A stretch of 30,063 nt of DNA from an uncultured archaeon (GTDB lineage Archaea; Iainarchaeota; Iainarchaeia; Iainarchaeales; CSSED10-239). Position numbers and translations under genes: made by a program. The notes under the pieces were generated by a model that was not told the origin of the DNA, ran no database searches, and worked only from the letters and a program-made list of their open reading frames with translations. Position 1 is the stretch's first letter; every line of letters begins with the position of its first letter. Shown here in pieces: positions 7,194 to 29,921 of the stretch. Location of the stretch: contig CAYXWT010000006.1 of NCBI GenBank assembly GCA_964468895.1, positions 1-30,063 of the forward strand, in the 5' to 3' direction.

Positions 7194-8399
7194 ATGTTTA
7201 AGCTTGTATTTAAAAAAGATGAACTTAAATTCCTATTACCTTTTTATTTATATATTTTTATTAACAGAGCATTTAAACTTATATCTTTGTTTTCTGTATT
7301 ATATTTTTTAGAAATTGGTTTAGGAATATTACAAATTAGCTTTATAATGTCTATAAACTATGTTGCACAGTTAATATTTGAAATACCAACTGGTGCTATT
7401 TCTGATATATTTGGAAGAAAATTTTCTGTACTATTAAGTTTTACTGGGATAAGTATTTGTTTGATTTTGGTTCCTTTCACATCAAATTATTATGTAATAT
7501 AATTATTATATTTTGGATATGGCTTTTTTAGAACATTTAAATCTGGTTCTAACCAATCTTGGGTAATAGACAATTTAAAATATCATAATAAAGGCAATCT
7601 AATTAAAGAATTTTATACTAAAAGACATAGTATAATAAATTTAGGACTTTGTTTAACTGGTATTATAGGATCTATTTTTAGAGCATTATTTGGATTAAAA
7701 TGTATTTGGTTTATTGGAGCTTTAGGAAATATATTTAGTTTTGTAATTTTATATTTTACTAAAGAATATAAAACAGATAATAAAATTGAAAAAACTAATA
7801 AAAACAATATCTTGAATAAGATAAAAGAATCTTTCATATATATTCAAAAAAATAAAATTGTATTTATTTTACTTTTAAGTTCATTTTTATTAAGTGTTTC
7901 TACATGTCTTAGAGGCTTTAAATTGGTTTGGGTAATTTTATTTACAGATTTAGGATTAAGTGCGGTTATTATTGGTCTAATAAATAGTGTTTCAGCAATA
8001 GGAGGAATATTTTTACCATATACTTCAAAATATTTTTCAAAATTAATAAAATCAGAAAGCAAGTTAATAGCCACTATGTTTTTTATTCAAATACTAGCAC
8101 TATTTAGTATATTTTTTGTAAATGACTACATTTCAGCAATAATACTATTTTTAATAATTTACATTATAATAGATATTATAAGTCCTATTAGAAATTATTT
8201 CTTCCAAAAACAAGTTAATAGTAAAATAAGAGCAACACTTACATCTACAGAAAATATGTTTAAATCTATAGCTTATATTATTGGTGTACCTCTTGCAGCA
8301 TATTTTATAGAAACAGTAGGAGTCAATTTAACTTTTGTGTTTAGTGGTGTTATACTAATTCCCTTTGTTATATTACTTTATAAATTAAAAAACAATTGA
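7194..8399 (+). pseudogene. MFS transporter: a 402-codon frame interrupted by one in-frame TAA at 7500-7502
   Basis: ORFs 7194..7502 and 7812..8399 are in the same frame. I translated 7503-7811 by hand and found no stop (LLYFGYGFFRTFKSGSNQSWVIDNLKYHNKGNLIKEFYTKRHSIINLGLCLTGIIGSIFRALFGLKCIWFIGALGNIFSFVILYF...). MFS motif A is PTGAISDIFGRKFSVLL. The total length of about 400 aa with about 12 hydrophobic segments fits a complete MFS protein. Confidence 0.6.
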
Positions 8400-9600: not shown

Positions 9601-11265
9601 TTATTTTTTGGGCTTTTTAACTTTTGTTTTCTTACTTTTTATTTTTGGTTTTTTTCTTATTTTGTTTGACTTTTGTTTTTTATTTAAGGAAAAGATAATT
9701 ACTGCTGCAATTATAACTATTATCAATATGATTATTAGAATATTTGCATCAAAACCTGAAGATTTTACACATACACAGTTCTTTGTATCAAGAAGTGTAC
9801 CTTCTGGACATGAAATATCACATAAAAGTTTTGAACCTCTTTCACCACCTTGGTTCAAGTCCTTTTCTTGTAAATCACTATCATTAACATCTTTTGAAGT
9901 TAAATTTTGGTCATCATCTACACTAACATTTGCATCTTCACATACACAAGTATCTTCATTTAAAGTATAACCATCATCACAAACCAATTCACATACTTCT
10001 TCAGCTACTATTTCTTCACATGTGCAAGTGTCTCCATTTAAAGTGTAACCATCATCACAAACCAACTCACATACTTCTTCAGCTACTATTTCTTCACATG
10101 TGCAAGTGTCTTCATTTAAAGTGTAACCATCGTCACAAACCAACTCACATACTTCTTCAGCTACTATTTCTTCACAAGCACAAGTATCTATATTTAAATC
10201 ATAACCTGTATTACAATCTAAAGAACAAACACAAACATTATCTACACAAGAAAAGTTTTCATCACAATCACTATCAATTAAACAACTTGCTGGCTCTCCA
10301 GATATTGCAAATTCAGAAAAAGAAGTTGTTTTTGCAGAATATAAATTTGTTTCTGAATTTTCTAAAGTAGTATCTAATAATTCATAAGTACTACCATTAT
10401 AGTGATATAAATTTATATTTTGAGAAGGAATACTATTAATAGTCATCCACGCTTCAGGAACTGTAAAATAAATAGAAGCATCTACAAAACTATTATTATA
10501 ATTTAATGGTAAATCAATATCATAACAAGAATATATTTCTTTATTATTTATAGTAGAAGAACATGTTTTTGGAGTAACTGGATAAGAATTAAAAGTATAA
10601 TCTACAATTCCATTATTTATTTTCATTTCATAAATATTTTCTGGAAATTCTAGTCCTAAAGAAATATCAAATTCATTATTTTGAATAGTTTCTAAATTTA
10701 TTTGACCACTTGTTTGTACATATCTGTCTTTAGAAACAATATAATCATAATTATGAAAAACTTCCATATCTCCAAAACCTAAGTTATATATACTTTTTTG
10801 ATAAATAAGTTTAACTAAACCAGTAGTTTCTAATGGTATAAAATCTATTTGAATATTATTATCAGGATCTGTTAAATCTATAGATATTAATTCTATTTTA
10901 TCAGGAACTATTGCTTGGTTTCCTTCATCATAAAAATTTAAGCTAGTATTATATTTTTCTATAATTCTTCCTTCATTATCTGCTGACAAATACATTTTTT
11001 CATTAGATATTAAACTATCAATAAGATCTACAAAAGAATTATCAGCATTAACTTGTTTTGAAGAACAATTAGATAAATCTGAATTAGATAAAATTAAATT
11101 AGAATCATGAACTTCATAACAAATATCTACTAAAAAGTCAGAACTAAAATTACTAATATTAGCTTGTGTACTACCATTTATATAAAATGGAAGTAATTCT
11201 TCAGAACCTTCATATGTTGTATTATTAATATTAAGAATACTACTAGTTGTAGCATACAAACCCAT
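9601..11265 (-). CDS. C-terminal part of a large surface protein: beta-sandwich domains, Cys-rich EGF-like repeats, TM anchor and poly-Lys tail
   Basis: It has no signal peptide of its own although the content is clearly extracellular. A domain ends NLYHYNGSTYELLDTT...YSAKTTSFSEFAISG (PGF-pre-PGF-like). Three near-identical 26-aa modules read CEEIVAEEVCELVCDDGYTLNEDTCT. The C-terminus has the TM helix ILIIILIIVIIAAVIIF followed by KKQKSNKIRKKPKIKSKKTKVKKPKK. It is in frame with 11386..12309. Confidence 0.75.
   Translation of the reverse strand: MGLYATTSSILNINNTTYEGSEELLPFYINGSTQANISNFSSDFLVDICYEVHDSNLILSNSDLSNCSSKQVNADNSFVDLIDSLISNEKMYLSADNEGRIIEKYNTSLNFYDEGNQAIVPDKIELISIDLTDPDNNIQIDFIPLETTGLVKLIYQKSIYNLGFGDMEVFHNYDYIVSKDRYVQTSGQINLETIQNNEFDISLGLEFPENIYEMKINNGIVDYTFNSYPVTPKTCSSTINNKEIYSCYDIDLPLNYNNSFVDASIYFTVPEAWMTINSIPSQNINLYHYNGSTYELLDTTLENSETNLYSAKTTSFSEFAISGEPASCLIDSDCDENFSCVDNVCVCSLDCNTGYDLNIDTCACEEIVAEEVCELVCDDGYTLNEDTCTCEEIVAEEVCELVCDDGYTLNGDTCTCEEIVAEEVCELVCDDGYTLNEDTCVCEDANVSVDDDQNLTSKDVNDSDLQEKDLNQGGERGSKLLCDISCPEGTLLDTKNCVCVKSSGFDANILIIILIIVIIAAVIIFSLNKKQKSNKIRKKPKIKSKKTKVKKPKK
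9950..10183. repeat. Three tandem copies of a 78-bp unit (9950-10027, 10028-10105, 10106-10183), with degenerate copies on both flanks
   Basis: Read directly from the sequence. The units (gt[a/g]tct[t/c]catttaaagt[a/g]taaccatc[a/g]tcacaaaccaa[t/c]tcacatacttcttcagctactatttcttcaca...) differ at only a handful of positions. Each encodes one 26-aa Cys-rich module on the minus strand. Confidence 0.9.
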
Positions 11266-12568: not shown

Positions 12569-13714
12569 TTATTCTAATAATTTCTTTCTACTTTCTATTT
12601 TTTTCATATCTTTATTTAGATTTTTTATTTGTATTATTTTCTCTCTTTTATCCATCGGAGGATTTAATTTTGCAGATTTTTCAAAAGTTTTACTTTTTTC
12701 TTTAATTTCAGAAGGTAAACTCTCACAATTTATTAAAATATTTAAAGTTTCATTATTTAAATAATTATCAATATCTACTCTTCTTTTAGCAGAATGTGCA
12801 AACTTACCAATTACATCACAGATTTGATCTCTATCTTGTGGGCTTAGTTTCTCTGCAAATTCATAATCTTCTATTTTCTTTAAAGATAAAATTATAGATT
12901 CTAATGAATCAGGAGTTATAATAAAAACTTTATAACTTCCAATTTGTACTACTAATTCTTTTAACTTATCTTGTAATACTTTAATAGTATCAAATGGAAC
13001 AACTAAATAAGCTATTTTTTTAACATTATCTTGATTAATATATTTTTTTAATCTTTCAGCTTGATCTTTAATATATTTAGGAAAATTATTTAATTTTTCA
13101 ATATTTCCAGGTGATTTAGCATCAAAAACTATATATTGATCAGCAATCTTAATTGTATTATCTGGTTTTTTATCAAAAGGAACTTTTTCTTTACTAAAAT
13201 AATCAATAGCATTTCTTTTACAAATATTGATTATAATTTGTTCTACATTTTGTTCATGTTCTTTCCAAGTATTCACCATATTTTGATATTTTTGTTCAAT
13301 TTCTAGTTTTTCTTTGTTTTTAATATTTTGAATTTCTTCTTTATACCAATTAATACTACTACTTAATTCTTGACTTTTTTGTTCATAATTACTTTTATAT
13401 CTTTCAAGTTCATTACTATATTGTTTATTTGTATGTATAAGTTCTTTATTTTCTTGTTCAATTTTTATATTCTTATTATTAGTTTTATTATAATTCTCAG
13501 TAATATGATTTACATCTAGACTTAATTTTTCTGAATTTCTAAATATTTCTTCTTTTCTTTTTATTTCCTTTTCCAAATTATTTTCTAAGTTTTCTAGTTC
13601 AACTCTACTTTTACCAATTAAATAAGTAATTTTAGACCAAGAAAATAATCTTTCCCACCAATTAATAACTTCTAATTTACCTAGTAATTTTTCAAAATCT
13701 TTTTTTGCATTCAT
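12569..13714 (-). CDS. rmuC: RmuC-family DNA recombination/nuclease-like protein
   Basis: The N-terminal half is a long coiled coil. The C-terminal half has RmuC-type motifs in order: KKPDNTIKIADQYIVFDAKSP (compare PD..i.lP....vvIDAK.P), AYLVVPFDT (compare MFIP.E) and VFIITPDSLESIILSL (compare lvSPttL.alL). No N-terminal TM helix is evident. Confidence 0.65.
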   Translation of the reverse strand: MNAKKDFEKLLGKLEVINWWERLFSWSKITYLIGKSRVELENLENNLEKEIKRKEEIFRNSEKLSLDVNHITENYNKTNNKNIKIEQENKELIHTNKQYSNELERYKSNYEQKSQELSSSINWYKEEIQNIKNKEKLEIEQKYQNMVNTWKEHEQNVEQIIINICKRNAIDYFSKEKVPFDKKPDNTIKIADQYIVFDAKSPGNIEKLNNFPKYIKDQAERLKKYINQDNVKKIAYLVVPFDTIKVLQDKLKELVVQIGSYKVFIITPDSLESIILSLKKIEDYEFAEKLSPQDRDQICDVIGKFAHSAKRRVDIDNYLNNETLNILINCESLPSEIKEKSKTFEKSAKLNPPMDKREKIIQIKNLNKDMKKIESRKKLLE

Positions 13715-13750
13715 AAATCTTCACTTAATATAAATCTTAGATATATAATT

Positions 13751-14482
13751 TTATAAAACTCTATGTCTTTTATAGTTTTTAGGTTTAACTTTAGGACTTT
13801 TAATAACTTTTAATTTTGGTTTAAATATTTTTTCACGTATTTTTTTTGCAACTTCAATTGCTTTCTTAACTCTAATTTTATTAGTATTTAAATAACCATT
13901 TTTATTAAAATAACGATCTCTTATAGTTCCAAAAAAAGACATTGCTTGATTATATTTCTTCAAATTATTATTTAATCTTTTAGATAAATTCTCATATTGA
14001 GATTTGTCCATTGCTTTTCTTTTATAATCAAAATCTAATCTCTCTAAATCTCTTTTAATACTTTGAATTTGTGATTTTAGATGATTAATATTAGCTTTAT
14101 TACAACTATCATATACAATATAAATATTAGGACTAATGATATGTGCTGCAGCAATTAAAGGATAAAGTAATTGAGAATACCACTCTTTAGGGTATTTAAA
14201 GGATTTATCTTTATTTTTTACACCTTGTATAAAATTCACATCTATAATTAAGTTATTAGCAAATGAGATTTCTTTAAATTTTGGAAGCATTATACCAACT
14301 TCTTTATTGTTATATGATAAAGAAACAATCATTGCATCCTCTTTAAAACTATGGATAGTATATCCATCATTAAAAGTATGTGCAAATTTAAAACCAATTT
14401 TAAAACCTTTAGATAATTCTATATTTTGCATTAATTTATATAGTCTATTATTATGTTCCACAATATCTAATATGTCTGACAT
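13751..14482 (-). CDS. Hypothetical protein: about 130-aa globular N-domain, coiled-coil segment and strongly basic C-terminal tail
   Basis: I recognise no family motif. The tail is KIRVKKAIEVAKKIREKIFKPKLKVIKSPKVKPKNYKRHRVL. It starts 15 nt after the exonuclease stop and ends 36 nt before rmuC, so it is embedded in the operon. Confidence 0.5.
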   Translation of the reverse strand: MSDILDIVEHNNRLYKLMQNIELSKGFKIGFKFAHTFNDGYTIHSFKEDAMIVSLSYNNKEVGIMLPKFKEISFANNLIIDVNFIQGVKNKDKSFKYPKEWYSQLLYPLIAAAHIISPNIYIVYDSCNKANINHLKSQIQSIKRDLERLDFDYKRKAMDKSQYENLSKRLNNNLKKYNQAMSFFGTIRDRYFNKNGYLNTNKIRVKKAIEVAKKIREKIFKPKLKVIKSPKVKPKNYKRHRVL

Positions 14483-14497
14483 ATAAATCTATCAAAA

Positions 14498-15064
14498 TTA
14501 TTTTAAAAATTCTTTTAACTTTCTCTCCAACACCATAGTTGCTTCAATATCACTAAGTGCATCGTGAGCATCTATTTTTATATCAAAATGCCTTGCAAGA
14601 GTTTCTAATTTATTATTTTCTAGCCCAGTTAATTTTTGATTGTATTCAAGCCATCTTACTATTGCTAATGGATCTATTAATTTATAATTAAAATAAGAAC
14701 CATAATATTTATGATTATGTTTTTTAAAAAAGTTTTGAAGAAAATCACAATCAAATTTACCATTATAAGCACCAATACTAAATTTATCAGATCTGTCAAA
14801 TTTATCTATATATTTATCTAAAAATTTAATAAATTCAAGAAATACAAACTTAGATTCTGGAAATAATTTTAATTGTTCTATAGTAAACCCAGTTACTTGA
14901 AGAGCCTCTGGATTTATATTATTAAAATCATTAGGTCTTACTTTCCATTCTTTTCTTTCTTTAACTATTCCATCTACTTCAATAATACAAGCTAACTGTA
15001 TTATTTCATTAATACTAGAATCTAAACCAGTAGTTTCCACATCAAACCAAAATATTTTATTCAT
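14498..15064 (-). CDS. DEDDh-family 3'-5' exonuclease (DnaQ/RNase T-like)
   Basis: Exo I is IFWFDVETTGLD. Exo II is GAYNGKFDCDFL. Exo III is AHDALSDIEAT (H-x4-D). The protein is 188 aa, a single-domain size. GGAG (plus-strand ctcc, 15070-15073) lies 5 nt upstream of the ATG. Confidence 0.8.
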   Translation of the reverse strand: MNKIFWFDVETTGLDSSINEIIQLACIIEVDGIVKERKEWKVRPNDFNNINPEALQVTGFTIEQLKLFPESKFVFLEFIKFLDKYIDKFDRSDKFSIGAYNGKFDCDFLQNFFKKHNHKYYGSYFNYKLIDPLAIVRWLEYNQKLTGLENNKLETLARHFDIKIDAHDALSDIEATMVLERKLKEFLK

Positions 15065-15181
15065 AATCTCTCCAAATTACAATTTTTGTTTTAGAAGCAT
15101 ATTAAAAATTTATTTCAACAATTTATTTTCAATTTTATTACCATTACAGTTTGATTATTACTGTATTAAACAACATAAATA

Positions 15182-18064
15182 CTATACATTTAATATTAAT
15201 TCTTTTATTTTATTTATAGACAAAGGTTTTATAATATCTATTTTATTTTGAGTTATGTAGTAGATTTTACACATGATATTTGCCTTAGGATAATTACCTT
15301 TTAAACAATGATAATAAACAGATAATTGTTTAATATACTCATTATGATTAATTTTACTAGTATCTGTTTTATAATCCACTATTTGATAAATATTACTTCC
15401 AAAGTCACAAATTAAATCTATGTTACCTCTTATTAAATTATCATTTATAGGAATTGTACAATCCACTTCTGTTAAAAAATTTGCATTTAAGTTAGTAATA
15501 AATTTTCTCAAATTATTTACTTCAGGAGTTTTATAATCATCTACTTCTATTCCTAAAGCTATTTTTTGAGCACATTCATGTATATAATTTCCAAATTTTA
15601 TACCCTTACCAATTGTTTTTTCATCATTAGTATAATTCATAATATCATGAACAGAAAGAACTAGACCTCTCTTATGATATTTAGAAATATGTATATCTAC
15701 ACTATTAGTAATTTTATTTTCTTTAGTATAATTTAAATTAAATTGTTCCAAATATTCTTCTGAATTTTTAGTTTTTTCTAAAAGTTCACTATAAAATAAA
15801 GAGGGATTATAAGAACTTAAAAACAAATATTGTTTAGCTCTAGTAATAGCAACATAATATAGTCTTCTTTCTTCATCATAATCAGGTTTATTTATAATAT
15901 TTACAAAATCACTACTTGGATTATAATAATCAGAATAATAATTATTACTTAAACAAACTTTTTTATTTAATCTAAGTCCTGTTAAATCATTATAATTTAT
16001 AATATTTTTATCACTATTAGAAGAAGGAAATTGCTTTTTATTTATATTAGAGATAAATACAACTGGATATTCAAGTCCTTTTGAACCATGTATTGTTTGT
16101 ATATTTATAGAATTGTTATATTCTACATTTTCTAACACATAAGTTCCATTGTTTTTTATATTTTCTTCTATAAAATAAACAAGATCAGAAACACTCATTA
16201 AATTATTATTAAACAAATCAGAAATTATAGTAATAATCTTATTTGAATATTTATTTTTAAGATTATTAAATTTAAATACATTATTTACAATTTTAGTTAT
16301 AGTTTTTAAAGTTTTTATTTTATAAACAAAATTTATAATTTCAATAGGATAAACTCTATTTTCTAGTTTTGTACTTAATAGACTTTTTTTAAATTTAAAA
16401 GGATAATTGTTATAATCAAGAATAGTACTCCACGATTCTTTGTTATGTATATTTGAAATTAATTTTAAATATGCCAAAAGAATAATACCACATTCTTTAT
16501 TAAATAAATTAATACCTCCTTCATAACTGGCAGGAATATTTAGTTTAGAAGCTTCTTTTTGAAAATCTTGTGCAAATTTTCTATCTCTACAAAGAACAAC
16601 TACATCACTATAATTAATATTTCTATATTTTGTATGCTCATTAATATCTACATCTTTAATTTTATAATTATCATCTTTATTATTAATTATTTTTAAGATA
16701 TTATGTAAAATTAAATTAAATTCATTATCTCTAGAATTTGTTCTTAAAAATTTAATTTCAGAATAATCATTAAGTTCAAAATTAGCTTTTAATTGTACAA
16801 TATTGTTTTCTAATTCAGTATAATTAAGTTCTTCATCTTTACTTGCTTTTACTAAAAGAGAATTTTTAGAAAAATCTAATATTTTTTGAGAACTTCTAAA
16901 ATTAAGATCAAATTCCTTCTTTTCTACATTTACTTTAAAACCAATTCTAATTTCATCTTTATTTAATATTTCTTTATAATATTTTATTTTTTCTTCAAAT
17001 TCAAGTATATTATTAATAGTTGCATTTCTAAATCCATAGATACCTTGTTTCCAATCACCAACAACTAACAAATTATTATTTTTCATCAAAAGAAGAGTCA
17101 ACATAAATTGTAATTCATTAGTATCTTGAAATTCATCTATCATCACATATTCAAAACTATTATTATTTCTTATTTCCTTATTATAATACAATAAAATTAA
17201 ACTAAACATAGAAAGAAAACCAAAAGTTAATTTATTTTCTTTTACTGAATTTTCAATATATTGAATATAAATATCATGTATAAAATTAATAAGTAAAGTT
17301 CGATCTTCTAAATAATAAATTTGTTTTGCATCTTCAACATCAACTTGTTTTTCACTTTTCCAAGTCTCCAAATTAAAAATATTTTTATAATAATTATGAT
17401 TTTTAGAATTTAATTTTTTTAAAAATTTAGATTGAACTATTTTGTTTTTATTATTTTTGTTTTTATTTAAAAAATTAAATTCTCCAATAAATAAATCTAA
17501 ATTACCAACAAGTTTATTTTTGCCATCTAAAAACCAATCATTTTTAGTTGGAAATATACCTCTAGATTGTAATTTAAATATTAGTTTTAAAAGATCTTCA
17601 TAGTTATTATTAATTACATCAAATATTTCTTTATATTTTAGATAATTTTGTTTCTGAAAAGAATAATATGTTTTTTTAAAAAATTTATTATTTAAGATAA
17701 TATTATCCATTAATTTAAAATTCGAAGATAACTTTAAATTCAACCCCAAATAACTAGGAGTATCTTCTCCAAAAAGAGAAAGTAATTTATTACAAAAAGA
17801 ATCAAAAGTAGAGATATTTGTATTCAATAAATTAATATCCGGTTTAGTTTTTATAATTTCACATATTATTTTATCTTTCATATTACTTGCAGCATTATTT
17901 GTAAAAGTTAAAAGTAATATATTTTCTATATTTATACTTGGTTGGTTTAATATATTCACAAATCTATTTGTTATACAATATGTCTTTCCAGTTCCTGCAC
18001 CAGCATCTACAACATACATCCCATCAATAGTGTTAGTAATATAATCTTGTTTTTCATTTTTCAT
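15182..18064 (-). CDS. addA: AddA/PcrA-like SF1 (UvrD-family) helicase fused to a C-terminal RecB-type PD-(D/E)xK nuclease
   Basis: Helicase motifs: I VVDAGAGTGKT; Ia LLLTFTNNAASNM; II VMIDEFQDTNELQ; III VVGDWKQGIYGFRNA; IV FRSSQKIL; V IQTIHGSKGLEYPVVF; VI ERRLYYVAITRAKQYLFL. Nuclease motifs: GNIDLICDF...IVDYKTD and YIKQLSVYY. The ORF-track start at 18085 is TTG. The first ATG (18064) overlaps the upstream TGA as ATGA and follows GAGGGTG (18070-18076). Confidence 0.85.
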   Translation of the reverse strand: MKNEKQDYITNTIDGMYVVDAGAGTGKTYCITNRFVNILNQPSINIENILLLTFTNNAASNMKDKIICEIIKTKPDINLLNTNISTFDSFCNKLLSLFGEDTPSYLGLNLKLSSNFKLMDNIILNNKFFKKTYYSFQKQNYLKYKEIFDVINNNYEDLLKLIFKLQSRGIFPTKNDWFLDGKNKLVGNLDLFIGEFNFLNKNKNNKNKIVQSKFLKKLNSKNHNYYKNIFNLETWKSEKQVDVEDAKQIYYLEDRTLLINFIHDIYIQYIENSVKENKLTFGFLSMFSLILLYYNKEIRNNNSFEYVMIDEFQDTNELQFMLTLLLMKNNNLLVVGDWKQGIYGFRNATINNILEFEEKIKYYKEILNKDEIRIGFKVNVEKKEFDLNFRSSQKILDFSKNSLLVKASKDEELNYTELENNIVQLKANFELNDYSEIKFLRTNSRDNEFNLILHNILKIINNKDDNYKIKDVDINEHTKYRNINYSDVVVLCRDRKFAQDFQKEASKLNIPASYEGGINLFNKECGIILLAYLKLISNIHNKESWSTILDYNNYPFKFKKSLLSTKLENRVYPIEIINFVYKIKTLKTITKIVNNVFKFNNLKNKYSNKIITIISDLFNNNLMSVSDLVYFIEENIKNNGTYVLENVEYNNSINIQTIHGSKGLEYPVVFISNINKKQFPSSNSDKNIINYNDLTGLRLNKKVCLSNNYYSDYYNPSSDFVNIINKPDYDEERRLYYVAITRAKQYLFLSSYNPSLFYSELLEKTKNSEEYLEQFNLNYTKENKITNSVDIHISKYHKRGLVLSVHDIMNYTNDEKTIGKGIKFGNYIHECAQKIALGIEVDDYKTPEVNNLRKFITNLNANFLTEVDCTIPINDNLIRGNIDLICDFGSNIYQIVDYKTDTSKINHNEYIKQLSVYYHCLKGNYPKANIMCKIYYITQNKIDIIKPLSINKIKELILNV

Positions 18065-20910
18065 TCTAACACCCTCTTTAAACAAATAGTATTATATTGA
18101 CAATCCTTACAAACATTATCTTTAAGTGGTTTATATTCAAAACTATTTTCTAAATAATTGTTTATTAATTTATATTGTTCTTTTAGAAATTTAATAAAAT
18201 TATCTAAATCTTCTTTAAAAAAAAGAACTTTTGAACAATTCTTATAAGAGCAAAATCTAATTTTATAAATTTGATTAGGGATATTAAGTATAAGCTTTTT
18301 TGATTTTGTAAATTCACCTATATATTTACATAAATCATCATACCACTTTAATTTTTGATAATCTTTTAAATTATAATTTAAAATATTAATTTCTAAGTCA
18401 TGATTATTAAGATAATTTAAAAGATTAGACTCTCCAATTTTATTAATTAAATTAATTCTTTCTTGAGATGTTTTCAATATCTCAATAAATTCATTTGTTT
18501 TTATAAATTCTGAATAATATAAATCCACATATTTTACTTTTATAATATTACTATCATATAATTGATTACCTTTTTCATCTATTTCTTCTAATTCTTTAAA
18601 GTCAACTATATTTTTTTTAATAATAGTATTTTTGTTACTAAAAGGAAAATAATAATGAAATTCAATATTTTTATTTTTATTAAATTCAAGAGAATTTAAA
18701 TTAAGAATGTACAATAATGCTTGAAAATCTATATTTACTGCATTACCATTATTTTCATAAGTATTAGCATTATCAATATTAACACCATTTTGATAATCAG
18801 ATTTATTTTCATTCTTACTACTACTAACTACTAATTCTTTATTTGAATTTTTAAAAATGCTAGTTGTACTTTTTTTCAATTTAGAACTTTTATAATCTAT
18901 TATTAGATTATTATTTACTATTAAGTCAATAACACCTTTTATACTAAAAGTTTTATTTTCAAAATAAAATTCATTATTATTGGATTTTAATTTTACATTT
19001 AGTTTTTTCGCAAATATATTACACGTTTTATTTTTTACAGGCTTTTCTAAACTATTTTCTAAATTATGTACAATAATATTAAGATTATTTAAAAAAGCAA
19101 TACAATTCAATAGTGCAATTTTAAAATTGGTTCTTTCTAATTCATAATCTATTTCATTTATAAAAAAACTAAAATCTTGCATAATAATATCTAAAAAATA
19201 ATCAATTCCTTTTTGTAAAACAAGTTCTTTATTTTCTATATAAAATTCACAAAAATAATGTAAAAGAGTTCCTTTTCTTAAATAAATATTATCTTCTTGA
19301 TCTAATAATTTATAAAAATCTAACTTTTTAGGACAAAGAACAAAGTTATTTAAAGTTGTTTTTGAAAAAACAAATTCACACTTTTTTTCTAAAATATCAT
19401 CATCAACAACATTATTCTTAATTAAACTGATGTCTTTATTTTCTTTATCTTTAATATTTGAAATTATTTTTTTAGTATTAAATATAGAATCATTAAAAGA
19501 AATAATAGATTTATTAAAAATCTTTAAAAAATAAAAACAAGGGTTTGTTTTTTGACCATTTAAATATTCAGTTACAAAATAGTAATTATATTCTCCTTGT
19601 TGAACTAATATTTTAAATTTATCTTGAGCTTTTTGATCTTGTATTTTACTATCTTTATAAGATTTACTTTTAATATTACTAATCCAATTATTATCTAAAC
19701 CAACATAGAAACAAACAGGTTTATCAACATACATTGAATTTTTACAATCTACAATTAATACACCTTTTTTGGTTTTTTCTAAAACTAAATCTAAATTAAT
19801 AATACCATATTTAAGATCTTTTAAGTTATTTAAATTTATATAGTTATTAAATATATGTAAATTATATAACACATCTTTAAATTGAAAAGGTAGTAATAAT
19901 TTGTTATTTTCAAAGAAATAATAGAGCTTATTATAAGTAATATTTTCTTTTTTTAGATTTAATAAAATATCATATAAATCATCTAAAATTTGATTTTGGT
20001 TAATTTTATTAATATATTGTTTTAAATAATAATTATAATATTTATTATTTATTTCTATATTTAATAAATTTAAAAAAAAGGCAACATCTTTTATTTTCAA
20101 ATCATCTGTATTATAACTTAATTCTATCAAATTAATAAAATCTCTAATAATTATATTTTCATATAAATAAGATTTTATATTTAAATCTATTTCTTTATTA
20201 TCTAATTTAGATTTTATTATAGGCAAGATTTCAGAATTAGTATTAAGAATTATTGCAACATCATTTTGATTATCTTTAGTTATCAAATTTATTAAATTAT
20301 CAACAAGTTCTTTATTATTATCAAAATTAAAAAAAGAATTAAATTCAGTAATAAATTTATCTTCTTTAAATATACTAATTACATCATAATTATAATTTAA
20401 AGGTAATATATTTTTATCAAGTTCAGTAAAGAAATCAACTCCAATTATTGCTAATTTTTTATTTGGAAATATTTCTTGAAAATTAAACTTTTCTATAGCA
20501 AATTCACAAGTATTTAAATTCTTATAAATATTAAAAACAGTTAATTCATCTTTATTTAAAAAACTTGGAATTTGATTTATTGATCCTTTATTTTTATAAA
20601 TGTCAATTATTTTTAAATAGGTGTTATGTATAAATCCTAAATCAATATTATTTAATTTTAAATTTTTAGTATTATTAATTAAATTATAAATTCTTATAAT
20701 AACTTCAGTAGTATCTAAGACTTTATTATTTAGAAATAAAATTGAATTTTTAGATGCAATTTCTTTAGGAGTATAAGCAAATCCTCCAACAATTGGTTTA
20801 TTTATAGATTTATTTAAAGCAGTTACTAATGCTGGATCTATACTTATAACTAAATCATAATCTTTTACTTCATTATATAATTCAGATATAGATTTTATTT
20901 TATTTAACAT
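18061..20910 (-). CDS. addB: AddB-like subunit: degenerate (Walker A-less) helicase-like scaffold plus a C-terminal Fe-S 'iron-staple' PD-(D/E)xK nuclease domain
   Basis: No GxGK[ST] motif anywhere. Helicase-relic segments are KLAIIGVDFFTELDKNIL and VLIVDCKNSMYVDKPVCFYVGLDNNW. The nuclease has FVLCPKKLDFY (first Cys, codon 19335..19333), GVIDLIVNNNLIIDYKSSK, DFQALLYIL and a terminal CKDCQYNTIC (C-x2-C-x5-C). This is the AddB/Cas4/Dna2 four-Cys arrangement. The gene is translationally coupled (ATGA) to the AddA-like gene. Confidence 0.75.
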   Translation of the reverse strand: MLNKIKSISELYNEVKDYDLVISIDPALVTALNKSINKPIVGGFAYTPKEIASKNSILFLNNKVLDTTEVIIRIYNLINNTKNLKLNNIDLGFIHNTYLKIIDIYKNKGSINQIPSFLNKDELTVFNIYKNLNTCEFAIEKFNFQEIFPNKKLAIIGVDFFTELDKNILPLNYNYDVISIFKEDKFITEFNSFFNFDNNKELVDNLINLITKDNQNDVAIILNTNSEILPIIKSKLDNKEIDLNIKSYLYENIIIRDFINLIELSYNTDDLKIKDVAFFLNLLNIEINNKYYNYYLKQYINKINQNQILDDLYDILLNLKKENITYNKLYYFFENNKLLLPFQFKDVLYNLHIFNNYINLNNLKDLKYGIINLDLVLEKTKKGVLIVDCKNSMYVDKPVCFYVGLDNNWISNIKSKSYKDSKIQDQKAQDKFKILVQQGEYNYYFVTEYLNGQKTNPCFYFLKIFNKSIISFNDSIFNTKKIISNIKDKENKDISLIKNNVVDDDILEKKCEFVFSKTTLNNFVLCPKKLDFYKLLDQEDNIYLRKGTLLHYFCEFYIENKELVLQKGIDYFLDIIMQDFSFFINEIDYELERTNFKIALLNCIAFLNNLNIIVHNLENSLEKPVKNKTCNIFAKKLNVKLKSNNNEFYFENKTFSIKGVIDLIVNNNLIIDYKSSKLKKSTTSIFKNSNKELVVSSSKNENKSDYQNGVNIDNANTYENNGNAVNIDFQALLYILNLNSLEFNKNKNIEFHYYFPFSNKNTIIKKNIVDFKELEEIDEKGNQLYDSNIIKVKYVDLYYSEFIKTNEFIEILKTSQERINLINKIGESNLLNYLNNHDLEINILNYNLKDYQKLKWYDDLCKYIGEFTKSKKLILNIPNQIYKIRFCSYKNCSKVLFFKEDLDNFIKFLKEQYKLINNYLENSFEYKPLKDNVCKDCQYNTICLKRVLE

Positions 20911-21062: not shown

Positions 21063-21479
21063 TTAATCTAATTCATTAGTAGCAACACCAATATTTAGCC
21101 ATCTTAAATTAAAAGTATCTTTACTTTTATTACCTGCAATATCATTTATAGCTAATTGAATTATATAATCTCCAGGTTTACTTGCTGAAATTCTAACTTT
21201 CAATAAAGAATTATTTTCAAAAGCTATTTCTTCTAAATTATCAGAAGTAATATTTTCCCACAAATAAACAAAACCATTAGATGTTGCTGATTTGATTATA
21301 GTTCTATTAGTATCAATATCATCACCCACATCTACTGTTAGATTTAATATATCTATATCAAATTGATTTTTAAAAATTGTTTCTACAATACTATTTCCAA
21401 AGATATTTTCTCCAGAATCAATCAGTGTATCAATATCATTTACTTCTTTACTATTATCAACAAAAGTAAATGTCTCACA
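21063..21479 (-). pseudogene. Start-less C-terminal remnant of an Ig-like/beta-sandwich surface protein
   Basis: The frame is open from 21479 to the stop at 21063 (139 codons). The first candidate start is a GTG at 21329. There is no signal peptide. Content such as VRISASKPGDYIIQLAINDIAGNKSKDTFNLRW is typical of a terminal Ig-like domain. Upstream in frame there are TGA stops at 21480-82 and 21501-03. Confidence 0.35.
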
Positions 21480-23352: not shown

Positions 23353-24141
23353 TTATTTATTAGCACTAGAAATAATTAATTTATCATCATTTAGACGGTC
23401 TAAATATTTGATTTTTTTTTTAACAAAAGTACCAATAAGCTCTACACACTCACTATCTTTAATGTAATATTCTTTTACTCTGATAGTACTTAATTTTAAA
23501 ACTTGAAAAGAACTAAAATTAGTTAATTTTAATGTTGAATTTTTAGAAGAAATAGATTTTAAAGTATAATCCATATTACAACCTAAATTATAATATTGTT
23601 CTTTAGTAATTTCTATTACATTATAATTGCAGAATTTAGATTTAGATTTTATAAATTCATTAAAATTTAAAAAAGAAAAATCATTTTGAGTTTTTATATC
23701 TTTTGATTTTTTTGGATCCTTTAAAACAATTAAGTAATAAGCTTTAGGTTCTAAATAAAAATCTGAAAAATCTTTGTTTAAAATCTTAATAGTTCCAGAA
23801 CCATCAGATATACTTAAATCATTATGTTTTTGAAATACACCAATCTTATGAAAGTCATATCTCATAACATTCTGTAATAAAAAAATACAAGATGCCAAAT
23901 CTTTAGCATATCCAAAAGATTCTAAATCATAAAAATAAGCAACACATTTTTTATTAGAAAGAACAGTTTTAATTTCTTTAGTACTTTTTAAATCACCCTT
24001 AATTTTACATAATTGGTTTTTAAAAACAAGATCTTTTATGTTTTCTACTTTAAAATTTTCTAATTTTGAAGATTTACTTAAAAAATATAATACAAAAACA
24101 CCAATTATAATAATAACTAATACAATTATTAATCCAATCAT
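23353..24141 (-). CDS. Hypothetical N-terminally anchored membrane protein
   Basis: The N-terminal TM helix is MIGLIIVLVIIIIGVFVLYFL. A roughly 240-aa soluble domain follows with no recognisable motif. Confidence 0.5.
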   Translation of the reverse strand: MIGLIIVLVIIIIGVFVLYFLSKSSKLENFKVENIKDLVFKNQLCKIKGDLKSTKEIKTVLSNKKCVAYFYDLESFGYAKDLASCIFLLQNVMRYDFHKIGVFQKHNDLSISDGSGTIKILNKDFSDFYLEPKAYYLIVLKDPKKSKDIKTQNDFSFLNFNEFIKSKSKFCNYNVIEITKEQYYNLGCNMDYTLKSISSKNSTLKLTNFSSFQVLKLSTIRVKEYYIKDSECVELIGTFVKKKIKYLDRLNDDKLIISSANK

Positions 24142-27830: not shown

Positions 27831-29123
27831 ATGAAATTACATTGTTTAGGCGCTAGCCAAGAAGTTGGAAGAAGTGCCTTTCTATTAAAGGATAAAGATA
27901 ATATCCTTTTTGATTATGGATTAAAATTAAATCCAAGGACTAAAATGATTGAAGATCAAGATGCAGGAGATACTGCAGAGCTACCTCTAAAAGTTAATGA
28001 GTATTTAGATGGTGTCATTTTAAGTCATGCACATCTTGATCATTCAGGAGCAATACCTTATTTATACAAAACAGGTAATTGTCCCCTATTCGTAACACCT
28101 GCAACTCAAGATCTTTCAAATTTATTATGGAAAGATACTATTAAAATTGCAAAATATGAAAAAAAAGACCCAATTTTTGAAAAACCAGAAATTGATGAAG
28201 CTAATAATTCTGCTTTTCATTTAAATTTAAGAAAACCTACAGAAATCACTAAAAATTCAATTTTAACTTTTTATGATGCTGGACATATTGTAGGAAGTAC
28301 TATAAGTGTTTTAGAAACAAACAATACAAAAGTTATGTATACTGGTGATTTTAGAAGTAGTCCTTCAGAAATGTTTTCAGGTTATGATAAAAACTTACCA
28401 GAAGTAGATTACTTAATTACAGAAACTACTTATGGTAGAGATACACATAAAGATAGAAAACAAATAGAAATTAAATTTATTGAAGAAGTAAAAACAACTC
28501 TTGAAAATGGTGGTATTGTTATACTTCCTGCTTTTGCAATAGAAAGAAGTCAAGAAATTATAAGTGTTTTATATAAATATAAAGTTGATTTCCCAATATT
28601 TTTAGATGGTATGTCTAAAAAAGCAACAAATATATTTTTAGAATATCCAGACTATTTTACAGATCCTATTTTTTTTAAAAAAGCTTGTCGAAAGGTTCAA
28701 TATATTAAAAAACAAGCTCAAAGAAAAATTATTACTAAAAAACCATGTGTTATAATAACTACAGCAGGAATGCTTGAAGGTGGACCAGTATTAGGATATA
28801 TTAAAGAACTGGGATTAAATCCAGGTAATAAAATTATTATTTCTGGTTATCAAGTTCAAGGAACTAATGGTAAAAGATTATTGGATACTGGTAAATTATT
28901 AATAGATGGTAAAGAATTTGCGCCAATTTGTGAATTACTTAGATTTAGTTTTTCAGCACATGCTGATAAAAATGAAATTCATAAATTAATTAAAAAAGTA
29001 AATCCTAAAAAAATTATATGTGTACATGGAGATAAAGATACAACTTTAAGTTTTAAAAATGAATTAATTGAAAAAGGTTACAATGCTTTAAATCCAAAAT
29101 TAGGAGATATAGTAGATTTATAA
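27831..29123 (+). CDS. Metallo-beta-lactamase/beta-CASP family ribonuclease (archaeal aCPSF2-like size)
   Basis: MBL motif 2 is ILSHAHLDHSGAIPYL (HxHxDH). Also DAGHIVGS and YTGDF. Beta-CASP motifs are ITETTYG, FSFSAHADKNEI and ICVHGD. At 430 aa it has no KH domains. Confidence 0.85.
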   Translation: MKLHCLGASQEVGRSAFLLKDKDNILFDYGLKLNPRTKMIEDQDAGDTAELPLKVNEYLDGVILSHAHLDHSGAIPYLYKTGNCPLFVTPATQDLSNLLWKDTIKIAKYEKKDPIFEKPEIDEANNSAFHLNLRKPTEITKNSILTFYDAGHIVGSTISVLETNNTKVMYTGDFRSSPSEMFSGYDKNLPEVDYLITETTYGRDTHKDRKQIEIKFIEEVKTTLENGGIVILPAFAIERSQEIISVLYKYKVDFPIFLDGMSKKATNIFLEYPDYFTDPIFFKKACRKVQYIKKQAQRKIITKKPCVIITTAGMLEGGPVLGYIKELGLNPGNKIIISGYQVQGTNGKRLLDTGKLLIDGKEFAPICELLRFSFSAHADKNEIHKLIKKVNPKKIICVHGDKDTTLSFKNELIEKGYNALNPKLGDIVDL

Positions 29124-29174
29124 TTTTTATTATAAATCTTTTAATATTTTTTAAAAATAAATATACGATTGATT

Positions 29175-29921
29175 ATGAAAAGATTTTGCCCAAAATGTGG
29201 TTCTGAAATTACAGAAGATAATAGTATTAATAATTTTTGTGTAGATTGTTATCTTGAAGATAATGATATTTTAAAAGTACCTATATTTGAAATTACCATT
29301 TGTCCAAGATGTAGAGTTTTAAAATATGCTAAAAGATATTTTAAAGAATTTTCTAGTTTAGAAAAAGAATTAGTTAAACATGTAAAAGTAAATTTATCTG
29401 CACAAACAAATGTTAGTTTAAAATTATATATTGATACTGAAGATAATGTATATTATGCTTTAATTAATATTAAAGCCTTAATAGGAAATAAATTAAAAAA
29501 CATAGAAAAAAGATGTGAAATATCTTTAAGAAAAGATATTTGTCAAAACTGTTCACGAGCTGTAGGTGGATATTACACAACAATAGTACAACTAAGATTT
29601 GATAGTCAAAGAGATCTTAGTAAAAACATAGACATTAAAAACACAGAAGTTAATAAAATTATGAAAGAAATAAACTCCTATAAAGAAAATATAGGTGATC
29701 CTATCATAATCACTAAAGAAATTAAAGTGAAAACTGGTGTTGATCTTTACATTAATAATGTAAAACATGCTCAAAAAGTAATATCTGAATTAGATCAAAG
29801 TAAAAAAGCATATGGTGTTAAACATACCAAAACATTAGTTGGTATGGAAAAAAATGGTCAAAGAAGATATAGATTTACTATTTGTATTCATTTTGAAGAT
29901 GATTTAAAACAATCTACTTAA
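29175..29921 (+). CDS. NMD3-family (60S export adaptor-like) zinc-ribbon protein, archaeal type
   Basis: Cys pairs are in NMD3 order: FCPKCGS...FCVDCY, ICPRCR and CQNCSR. A roughly 100-aa beta-rich C-region follows. The ORF-track start at 29169 is TTG. The first ATG is at 29175 (MKRFCPKCG). Confidence 0.65.
   Translation: MKRFCPKCGSEITEDNSINNFCVDCYLEDNDILKVPIFEITICPRCRVLKYAKRYFKEFSSLEKELVKHVKVNLSAQTNVSLKLYIDTEDNVYYALINIKALIGNKLKNIEKRCEISLRKDICQNCSRAVGGYYTTIVQLRFDSQRDLSKNIDIKNTEVNKIMKEINSYKENIGDPIIITKEIKVKTGVDLYINNVKHAQKVISELDQSKKAYGVKHTKTLVGMEKNGQRRYRFTICIHFEDDLKQST

Follow-up and report, generated by a model that had tools for sequence, protein, structure and literature searches.

The stretch of archaeal DNA analysed here (the window, 30,063 nucleotides (nt)) carries five consecutive genes on its minus strand at positions 12569-20910. 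They encode an AddB-like nuclease, an AddA-like helicase-nuclease, a DEDDh exonuclease, an orphan protein and an RmuC-like protein of 381 amino acids (aa). We propose that they comprise a conserved two-gene AddAB-type helicase-nuclease core and three lineage-specific downstream genes, among which only the RmuC-like nuclease is recurrently linked to such enzymes. We give this reading a probability of about 0.55.

20910..18061, minus strand: AddB-like protein, 949 aa
18064..15182, minus strand: AddA-like protein, 960 aa counted from ATG
15064..14498, minus strand: DEDDh exonuclease, 188 aa
14482..13751, minus strand: orphan, 243 aa
13714..12569, minus strand: RmuC-like protein (381-aa gene), 381 aa

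Read directly in the sequence, the AddA-like ATG overlaps the AddB-like stop codon in an ATGA at 18064-18061, and by coordinates the following gaps are 117 nt (AddA-DEDDh), 15 nt (DEDDh-orphan) and 36 nt (orphan-381-aa gene). The coordinates of the open reading frames (ORFs) bear out the layout given in an earlier note on this DNA (the original prediction), namely five minus-strand genes with an ATGA overlap and gaps of 117, 15 and 36 nt.

The AddA-like protein contains a complete superfamily 1A (SF1A) UvrD-type helicase core (Pfam UvrD-helicase, 7.7e-48; UvrD_C, 1.5e-31), in which the motifs GAGTGKT (Walker A), DEFQD and VAITRAK can be read. Its C-terminal nuclease scores 20.4 bits against PDDEXK_1, just below the cut-off of 22, and the RecB-type nuclease motifs H..IDL..DYK..QLSVYY (QxxxY) are plain. 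Matches in the PDB include PcrA (2.7e-29), AddA (3U44_A, 2.8e-21), AdnB (2.8e-14), UvrD and Rep. Domains, motifs and PDB matches thus firmly uphold the UvrD-type SF1 helicase with a RecB nuclease that had been predicted. In a neighbour-joining (NJ) tree without support values the AddA-like family is mostly archaeal. The window protein groups with other low-GC archaeal sequences as sister to an Ignavibacteria/Bacteroidota clade; Thermoplasmata and then Methanomassiliicoccales branch outside these two clades, and single-chain UvrD-nuclease (UvrD-Cas4-like) fusions are closer than canonical AddA. A phylogeny had been suggested as a check for bacterial origin, and this unsupported, mostly archaeal tree gives no indication that a bacterial AddAB was simply acquired in recent times. 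Three loci assigned by binning to Eggerthellaceae, Anaerovoracaceae and Bacteroides salyersiae (L026, L029, L033) nest within the Methanomethylophilaceae clade of the AddA tree and have the gene order of the Methanomethylophilaceae loci; they probably represent mis-binning in public genomes.

The AddB-like protein scores 27 bits against PDDEXK_1 (cut-off 22), and Cas4 models match it at their C-terminal end. Residues C526 (≥90%), H551, D662, D672-x-K674 and Q730..Y734 vary little or not at all in 21 homologues, and a C-terminal CxxCx5C appears in the consensus of homologue alignments of 5 and of 21 sequences. Profile alignment with hhalign relates the protein to the nuclease domain of its AddA-like neighbour (probability 91%, E 9e-7). 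At the level of sequence, the assignment as a RecB/Cas4-family PD-(D/E)xK nuclease with a predicted four-cysteine (Fe-S type) module holds. The N-terminal region of ~500 aa contains no Walker A motif and does not match the AddA profile. From the originally proposed Fe-S PD-(D/E)xK scaffold, the nuclease and the four-cysteine module are retained, whereas a helicase-like N-terminus is not shown. Domains, motifs and the pairing of the two genes support the claim of an AddAB-type machine in an archaeal genome.

A search of GTDB species genomes with an AddB-like profile yielded 44 loci, to which a few metagenome contigs were added. They belong to Ignavibacteria, Bacteroidota, Methanomassiliicoccales, Thermoplasmata, Methanosarcinales, Hadarchaeota, Nanohaloarchaea and Aenigmatarchaeota. 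Wherever both ends of the pair are present (about 40 loci), AddB is followed directly by a co-directional AddA. The AddB-like/AddA-like pair is a stable two-gene module, and its surroundings range from housekeeping genes to defence islands. In Methanomassiliicoccales it lies in lineage-conserved synteny, with exonuclease VII (ExoVII) genes (xseA/xseB) on its upstream side and a P-type ATPase gene on its downstream side; Ignavibacteria show another conserved synteny, and in a Methanomicrobia metagenome-assembled genome (MAG; L050) the pair comes after a shikimate-pathway operon. In locus L007 it comes after McrBC, and in L009 an island that carries an integrase encloses it together with type III restriction-modification (R-M), EVE, and RmuC plus SNF2 genes. 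Core synteny in all relatives had been named as evidence against a defence module; such conserved or housekeeping context is found in Methanomassiliicoccales, Ignavibacteria and the one Methanomicrobia MAG, and defence islands in others. This mixture fits a dual role in repair and defence.

Two features recur around these loci. An ExoVII large-subunit gene (L031, 7365-8926, and 12 other Methanomassiliicoccales loci) is divergently oriented ~1 kb upstream of the pair and is adjoined by a conserved ORF of ~77 aa, presumed to be the small subunit (xseB). On low-GC archaeal contigs, genes of the HFX_2341_N type, with a CARF-like N-terminal domain and a winged helix-turn-helix, turn up repeatedly next to AddAB-like and RmuC/381-family islands (L003 4971-5573; L007 319-1245; L009 143-742; L138 5242-5895).

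The 188-aa protein is firmly predicted to be a stand-alone DnaQ-like DEDDh 3'-5' exonuclease. It matches RNase_T (2.9e-19) over profile positions 2-161 of 164 and the generic DEDDh model of PADLOC (3.9e-26), and the motifs DVETTG, NGKFD and HDALSD (H-x4-D) can be read in its sequence; domain and motifs agree with the original assignment. The only close relative of the locus, L001/L002 (protein identities of 63% for AddB, 69% for AddA, 77% for DEDDh and 75% for the 381-aa protein), has the order AddB-AddA-methyltransferase-DEDDh-381 and no trace of the orphan. Apart from L001/L002, the pair has no DEDDh, orphan or 381-family neighbour within 10 kb at any of the about 40 AddB-AddA loci, and DEDDh is absent from the 381-family loci scanned for it. 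The fixed five-gene combination originally put forward does not survive this neighbourhood comparison: the five genes are not a fixed unit but an assembly particular to this lineage, built on a conserved AddAB-like core.

The identity of the 381-aa protein required remote comparisons. It has no Pfam RmuC match (E ≤ 0.01) and no NCBIfam match, and PADLOC returns only coiled-coil noise. Precomputed Pfam domains place PF02646 in none of 120 homologues among the matches listed, and the family as a whole has no model in Pfam, NCBIfam or PADLOC. It is large: the scoring of 8,000 candidates gave more than 1,488 homologous clusters, with ~40% identity, in bacteria and DPANN. P184-D185 and D198-x-K200 are invariant in it. 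The AlphaFold2 (AF2) model of the window protein (predicted local distance difference test (pLDDT) 82) displays a continuous helix at 26-151 (~125 residues, pLDDT 80-95), followed by an alpha/beta core. Foldseek searches of the PDB and BFVD with this model gave no match below E 1e-3, the weak ones being led by PD-(D/E)xK nucleases, and PDB sequence and profile searches with the family retrieved nothing beyond SMC and tropomyosin coiled-coil matches. The bridge is an archaeal RmuC in L009 (744-1844; Pfam 1e-21), to which hhalign aligns the 381-aa family over 83 columns including DxK, K-Y and VVP (probability 60%, E 8.7e-5), and which matches a family member in L090 by BLASTP (E 2e-7). With E. 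coli RmuC alone only the DAK motif aligns (probability 0.3%). We therefore regard the family, with moderate confidence, as predicted PD-DxK nucleases of a divergent branch of the RmuC superfamily, outside Pfam RmuC. For the RmuC-type coiled-coil nuclease of the original prediction this means that the long helix and a remote RmuC-superfamily homology stand, and membership of Pfam RmuC does not. A phage origin of the 381-aa and orphan families was considered and rejected; scans of IMG/VR viral contigs found no relatives.

To quantify the gene neighbourhood of this family we compiled 87 non-redundant loci (80 from one metagenome scan, six look-ups and the window), grouped them into clusters at 60% identity and scored a link when a co-directional UvrD-family gene lay within 6 kb. 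A UvrD-type helicase(-nuclease) neighbour is present at 22 of the 87 loci, representing 9 of 17 clusters and three gene orders. In a bacterial clade with a G+C content of 48-58%, a ~500-aa family member precedes, by ~40 nt, a canonical AddB (PDDEXK_1 7.7e-36) and AddA. On low-GC contigs a single-chain UvrD-PDDEXK_1 gene is followed by a small ORF and the 381-family gene, often then by a gene for a 523-aa protein, and the neighbours include type III R-M, DrmD, a Cas3-like HD protein, HEPN or Cas12a. The third order is the window's own, AddB, AddA, DEDDh, orphan and 381-aa gene. By a rough estimate, rather than a computed null, a same-strand UvrD neighbour would occur by chance at ~1% of loci. 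The link of the 381-aa family to AddAB and UvrD-nuclease genes is thus supported as non-random; it is frequent and not obligatory. In addition, both the 381-family gene of L003 and the true RmuC gene of L009 have a SNF2 helicase gene directly behind them, which gives independent support to a functional equivalence of 381-family and RmuC nucleases. Other members stand alone in defence islands with AbiEii, type I R-M or Mrr.

At L056 (5586-10526) 19 nt separate a 381-family gene from a Cas12a (Cpf1) gene downstream of it; a UvrD/Dna2-like helicase gene and a 151-aa ORF come just ahead of the 381-family gene. In two low-GC loci (L059, 5293-6864; L138, 11209-12780) a member of the 523-aa family is encoded behind the 381-family gene, and a homologue of its N-terminal half comes after the AddA-like gene in L009 (16154-16906). 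Pfam scans of the L059 and L009 proteins gave no match, and none is on record for L138. The 523-aa protein may be another recurrent companion of helicase-nucleases.

The orphan has no Pfam, NCBIfam or PADLOC match, and 18 of its last 45 residues are K or R, so that the protein without known domain and with a basic tail is as originally described. A word-indexed search detected one homologue, and exhaustive phmmer searches added 16 of similar length at 28-40% identity. They share the motifs HTFPDGY, FIQG(I/V)K, PKxW and IRDRYFDKxGxLN, followed by the basic tail. By these alignments we take the orphan to be a member of a real, small unannotated family, for which no Pfam or PDB relative was found; neither remnants nor homologues of it occur at the other AddAB or 381-family loci searched. 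In L140 (281-1021) the orphan protein is 71.5% identical to that of the window (13751-14482), while the flanking DEDDh and 381-aa fragments are 100% identical as proteins, with 8 and 1 synonymous changes. The ratio of nonsynonymous to synonymous substitution rates (dN/dS) between L140 and the window is 0.51 for the orphan and 0 for the flanks, and hot spots of change are found at codons 61-90 and 121-180. The orphan is fast-evolving, which fits diversifying selection and relaxed constraint alike.

The remainder of the window supports an archaeal host, as the original prediction had it, by three Pfam-identified markers: NMD3, a beta-CASP/RMMBL nuclease and an ATP-grasp_5 protein. Two of these lie at:

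29169-29921: NMD3 (Pfam)
27831-29123: beta-CASP/RMMBL nuclease (Pfam)

The G+C content is ~20% across the whole window and the cluster shows no compositional break. Neither a tRNA nor an Rfam element was found in the window, no integrase domain is among the Pfam matches to its ORFs, and the search for flanking repeats as an island boundary returned only AT-rich chance matches. PADLOC, run on 17 window proteins, produced no system-specific match, only generic matches to GajB/UvrD, Cas4, DEDDh and methyltransferase models, and combined with Pfam on all ORFs it revealed no recognised defence gene elsewhere in the 30-kb window. The recently acquired accessory island that had been suggested is thus not shown by composition, tRNA, integrase domain, repeats or PADLOC, and the PADLOC check proposed with it matched no specific defence system. 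Most genes of the window share one strand. Several metagenome assemblies, among them ENA ERZ27316756 (k141_259899), contain the same contig with identical gene calls.

Three further observations concern the flanks. A sliding repeat with a period of 78 nt (9935-10230) lies in a minus-strand ORF of 554 aa (9601-11265) without a Pfam match. Its three overlapping 140-nt copies are in register, 81-100% identical, and produce 26-aa protein repeats; among otherwise identical contigs the ORF encodes 554 aa (L141), 528 aa (L143) or 502 aa (L142). Two short plus-strand ORFs (7194-7502 and 7812-8399) both match the Major Facilitator Superfamily model and look like a disrupted transporter gene, which is also split in other assemblies of the contig. 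Between a HAD hydrolase gene and the AddB-like gene sits an 88-aa minus-strand ORF (21063-21329) with a weak PKD-like match; the relative L001 lacks this ORF, the HAD gene and a 262-aa ORF (23353-24141) at the matching position.

How might the five products act? AddAB and RecBCD bind linear duplex ends, unwind them and cut both strands, and serve repair as well as the destruction of unprotected linear foreign DNA. By analogy, the AddB-like/AddA-like pair would load on linear duplex ends and unwind them by the single AddA-like motor, while its two nucleases would cut both strands; such end processing would contribute to recombinational repair and to the degradation of unprotected foreign linear DNA. 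More speculatively, the RmuC-like nuclease may serve as an additional endonuclease on DNA that the helicase-nuclease opens or threads, and DEDDh may remove 3' tails, thereby biasing the outcome to destruction over recombination. The orphan, equally speculatively, may modulate or target the activity.

Several results weigh against a conserved AddAB-type core with a recurrently linked RmuC-like nuclease. By score, the AddA-like protein is not an orthologue of characterised AddA: it reaches 149 bits against the NCBIfam equivalog addA_Gpos (cut-off 708) and 110 against addA_alphas (cut-off 861), and it is likewise far under the RecB and PcrA equivalog cut-offs. Because of these scores, we call it AddA-like in architecture only. 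The N-terminus of the AddB-like protein aligns with canonical AddB over a single 66-column stretch by hhalign (probability 7%), a PDB profile search with the protein found nothing, and its AF2 model, calculated from a 5-sequence alignment, is unusable for the fold (pLDDT 46.7). The operon is putative, and a promoter or terminator could lie in the 117 nt between AddA and DEDDh. Furthermore, 65 of the 87 381-family loci are without a nearby helicase and some lie in plain metabolic synteny; the partnership is therefore not obligatory. Finally, many of the contigs are short, and the count of 22 of 87 is corrected for shared ancestry only by the coarse clustering.

If the linkage were mere coincidence, an AddBA operon would be followed by unrelated DEDDh, orphan and 381-aa genes that share its orientation in a compact genome without any coupling. 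The 117-nt gap after AddA suits this explanation, as does the fact that same-strand genes form the majority of the window anyway. Even close relatives differ in what lies between AddA and the 381-aa gene, with a methyltransferase in and the orphan out, and DEDDh accompanies no other AddAB-like or 381-family locus besides L001/L002. We nevertheless consider coincidence unlikely, since the 381-family lies next to UvrD-type helicase-nucleases, in the same direction, in at least 9 divergent clusters and three gene orders, compared with the chance estimate of ~1%, and since each of the five products is a nucleic-acid enzyme or resembles a DNA-binding protein. At the opposite extreme, the locus would be a dedicated multi-gene anti-virus or anti-plasmid system combining AddAB-like resection, DEDDh, the orphan as sensor or specificity protein and the RmuC-like protein as effector. 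Relatives of the pair adjoin McrBC (L007) or lie in the integrase-bearing island of L009 with type III R-M, RmuC plus SNF2 and EVE, and 381-family members adjoin AbiEii, type I R-M, Mrr, RhuM/Bro-N, Cas12a, and DrmD with type III R-M. In agreement, Shield uses RmuC domains as proven defence effectors and DISARM-like operons contain them too (PMC10270631), and UvrD-Cas4-like helicase-nucleases are predicted defence components in the available part of PMC5704561. The fast evolution of the orphan between invariant flanks (dN/dS 0.51 versus 0) points in the same direction, although a value below 1 equally fits relaxed constraint. Against such a system, the five-gene co-occurrence is limited to one species-level lineage, PADLOC identifies no defence system or gene elsewhere in the 30-kb window, the pair occupies conserved housekeeping synteny in three other lineages, and a large 381-family subclade lies in metabolic synteny. 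Overall, we judge a dedicated defence system to be improbable.

A conserved AddAB-type core with three lineage-specific genes remains the reading we prefer. As a tentative extension, which we regard as possible but doubtful, the 381-family (~380-500 aa) could be the dedicated partner nuclease of AddAB- and UvrD-Cas4-type helicase-nucleases in an undescribed DNA-degradation or recombination-limiting system, with the window as its two-subunit variant. If so, this partner system, together with the small ORF and the 523-aa protein in low-GC lineages, would be widespread in bacteria and DPANN, and the window variant would be extended by DEDDh and by a rapidly diversifying small protein able to set specificity or to inhibit.

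The repeated coupling of the RmuC-like family to helicase-nucleases and the fast-evolving orphan are worth following. Archaea are generally taken to resect DNA ends with Mre11-Rad50-HerA-NurA. The stable presence of a separate two-gene AddAB-like family in Methanomassiliicoccales, Thermoplasmata and low-GC archaeal lineages implies that end resection may proceed differently in these groups. Well over a thousand clusters without a database model appear to represent a divergent RmuC-like nuclease that accompanies helicase-nucleases and defence genes, and the family offers a concrete starting point for working out what RmuC-type nucleases do in the cell. For DPANN, and possibly for other small-genome lineages, where few defence systems have been recognised, the locus also provides a candidate new module of defence or recombination control. 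Our literature search revealed no report linking the RmuC-like family with AddAB or UvrD-nuclease genes and none of AddAB-like pairs in DPANN or Methanomassiliicoccales, although absence is not thereby proven.

Among known systems, Gabija likewise combines a UvrD-like helicase with a nuclease, and the AddA-like protein matches many GajB models owing to generic UvrD similarity. Unlike in Gabija, the window helicase bears its own RecB nuclease. Classification as Gabija was rejected, as no GajA OLD/TOPRIM match exists in the five proteins or 12 other window proteins. Nor is a DISARM-like/type III R-M module seen: DrmD/SNF2, methylase and Res are present in the relatives L009 and L138 and absent from the window.

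In Shield, which is found only in Pseudomonas, the membrane-anchored RmuC-domain effector ShdA acts with ShdB-E, and RmuC homologues occur in DISARM-like operons (Macdonald et al. 2023, PMC10270631). Like RmuC (PF02646) and ShdA, the 381-aa protein combines an N-terminal long helical region with a C-terminal PD-(D/E)xK core, in the element order PD ... (I/V)D(A/S)K ... K-Y ... hydrophobic strand-VVP. Like the DISARM-associated RmuC homologues, its family occurs in defence islands beside SNF2 and DrmD helicases. In contrast to ShdA, it has no membrane anchor, as no hydrophobic or transmembrane-like segment is present (maximum Kyte-Doolittle 19-residue mean 1.13), and its similarity is restricted to remote profile matches. 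PADLOC connects it to Shield only by coiled-coil noise, the presence of a ShdA model in PADLOC 2.0.0 being unconfirmed.

UvrD-Cas4-like helicase-nucleases of bacteria and mesophilic archaea are, in the available part of Hudaiberdiev et al. 2017 (PMC5704561), predicted defence components that often accompany type III R-M, and unfused helicase and nuclease gene pairs are placed there in repair-like contexts. The window pair resembles these fusions in its UvrD-type helicase and pfam12705 nuclease and in its patchy distribution in bacteria and archaea, and the loci L009, L059 and L138 likewise have type III R-M neighbours. The same part of PMC5704561 makes no mention of the 381-aa or 523-aa family as companions. 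Unlike the fusions, the window pair distributes two nuclease domains over two polypeptides, which is the logic of AddAB.

The pair differs from AddAB in several respects. The AddA-like protein lies far under the equivalog thresholds and the NJ tree separates it from canonical AddA, the N-terminal half of the AddB-like protein displays no detectable helicase-like similarity and no Walker A, and the hosts of the family are largely archaeal, with Ignavibacteria and Bacteroidota. A single motor is a property that the window pair shares with B. fragilis AddAB, as described in the available part of PMC2887965. Like AddAB of the B. subtilis/B. fragilis type, the pair has the addB-addA order and an SF1A motor with a RecB-family nuclease, and the partner contains a second RecB-family nuclease together with a Cas4/AddB-type four-cysteine module. 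In B. subtilis, addB-addA is followed by the further nuclease genes sbcD and sbcC, so that an AddAB operon extended by accessory nucleases has precedent.

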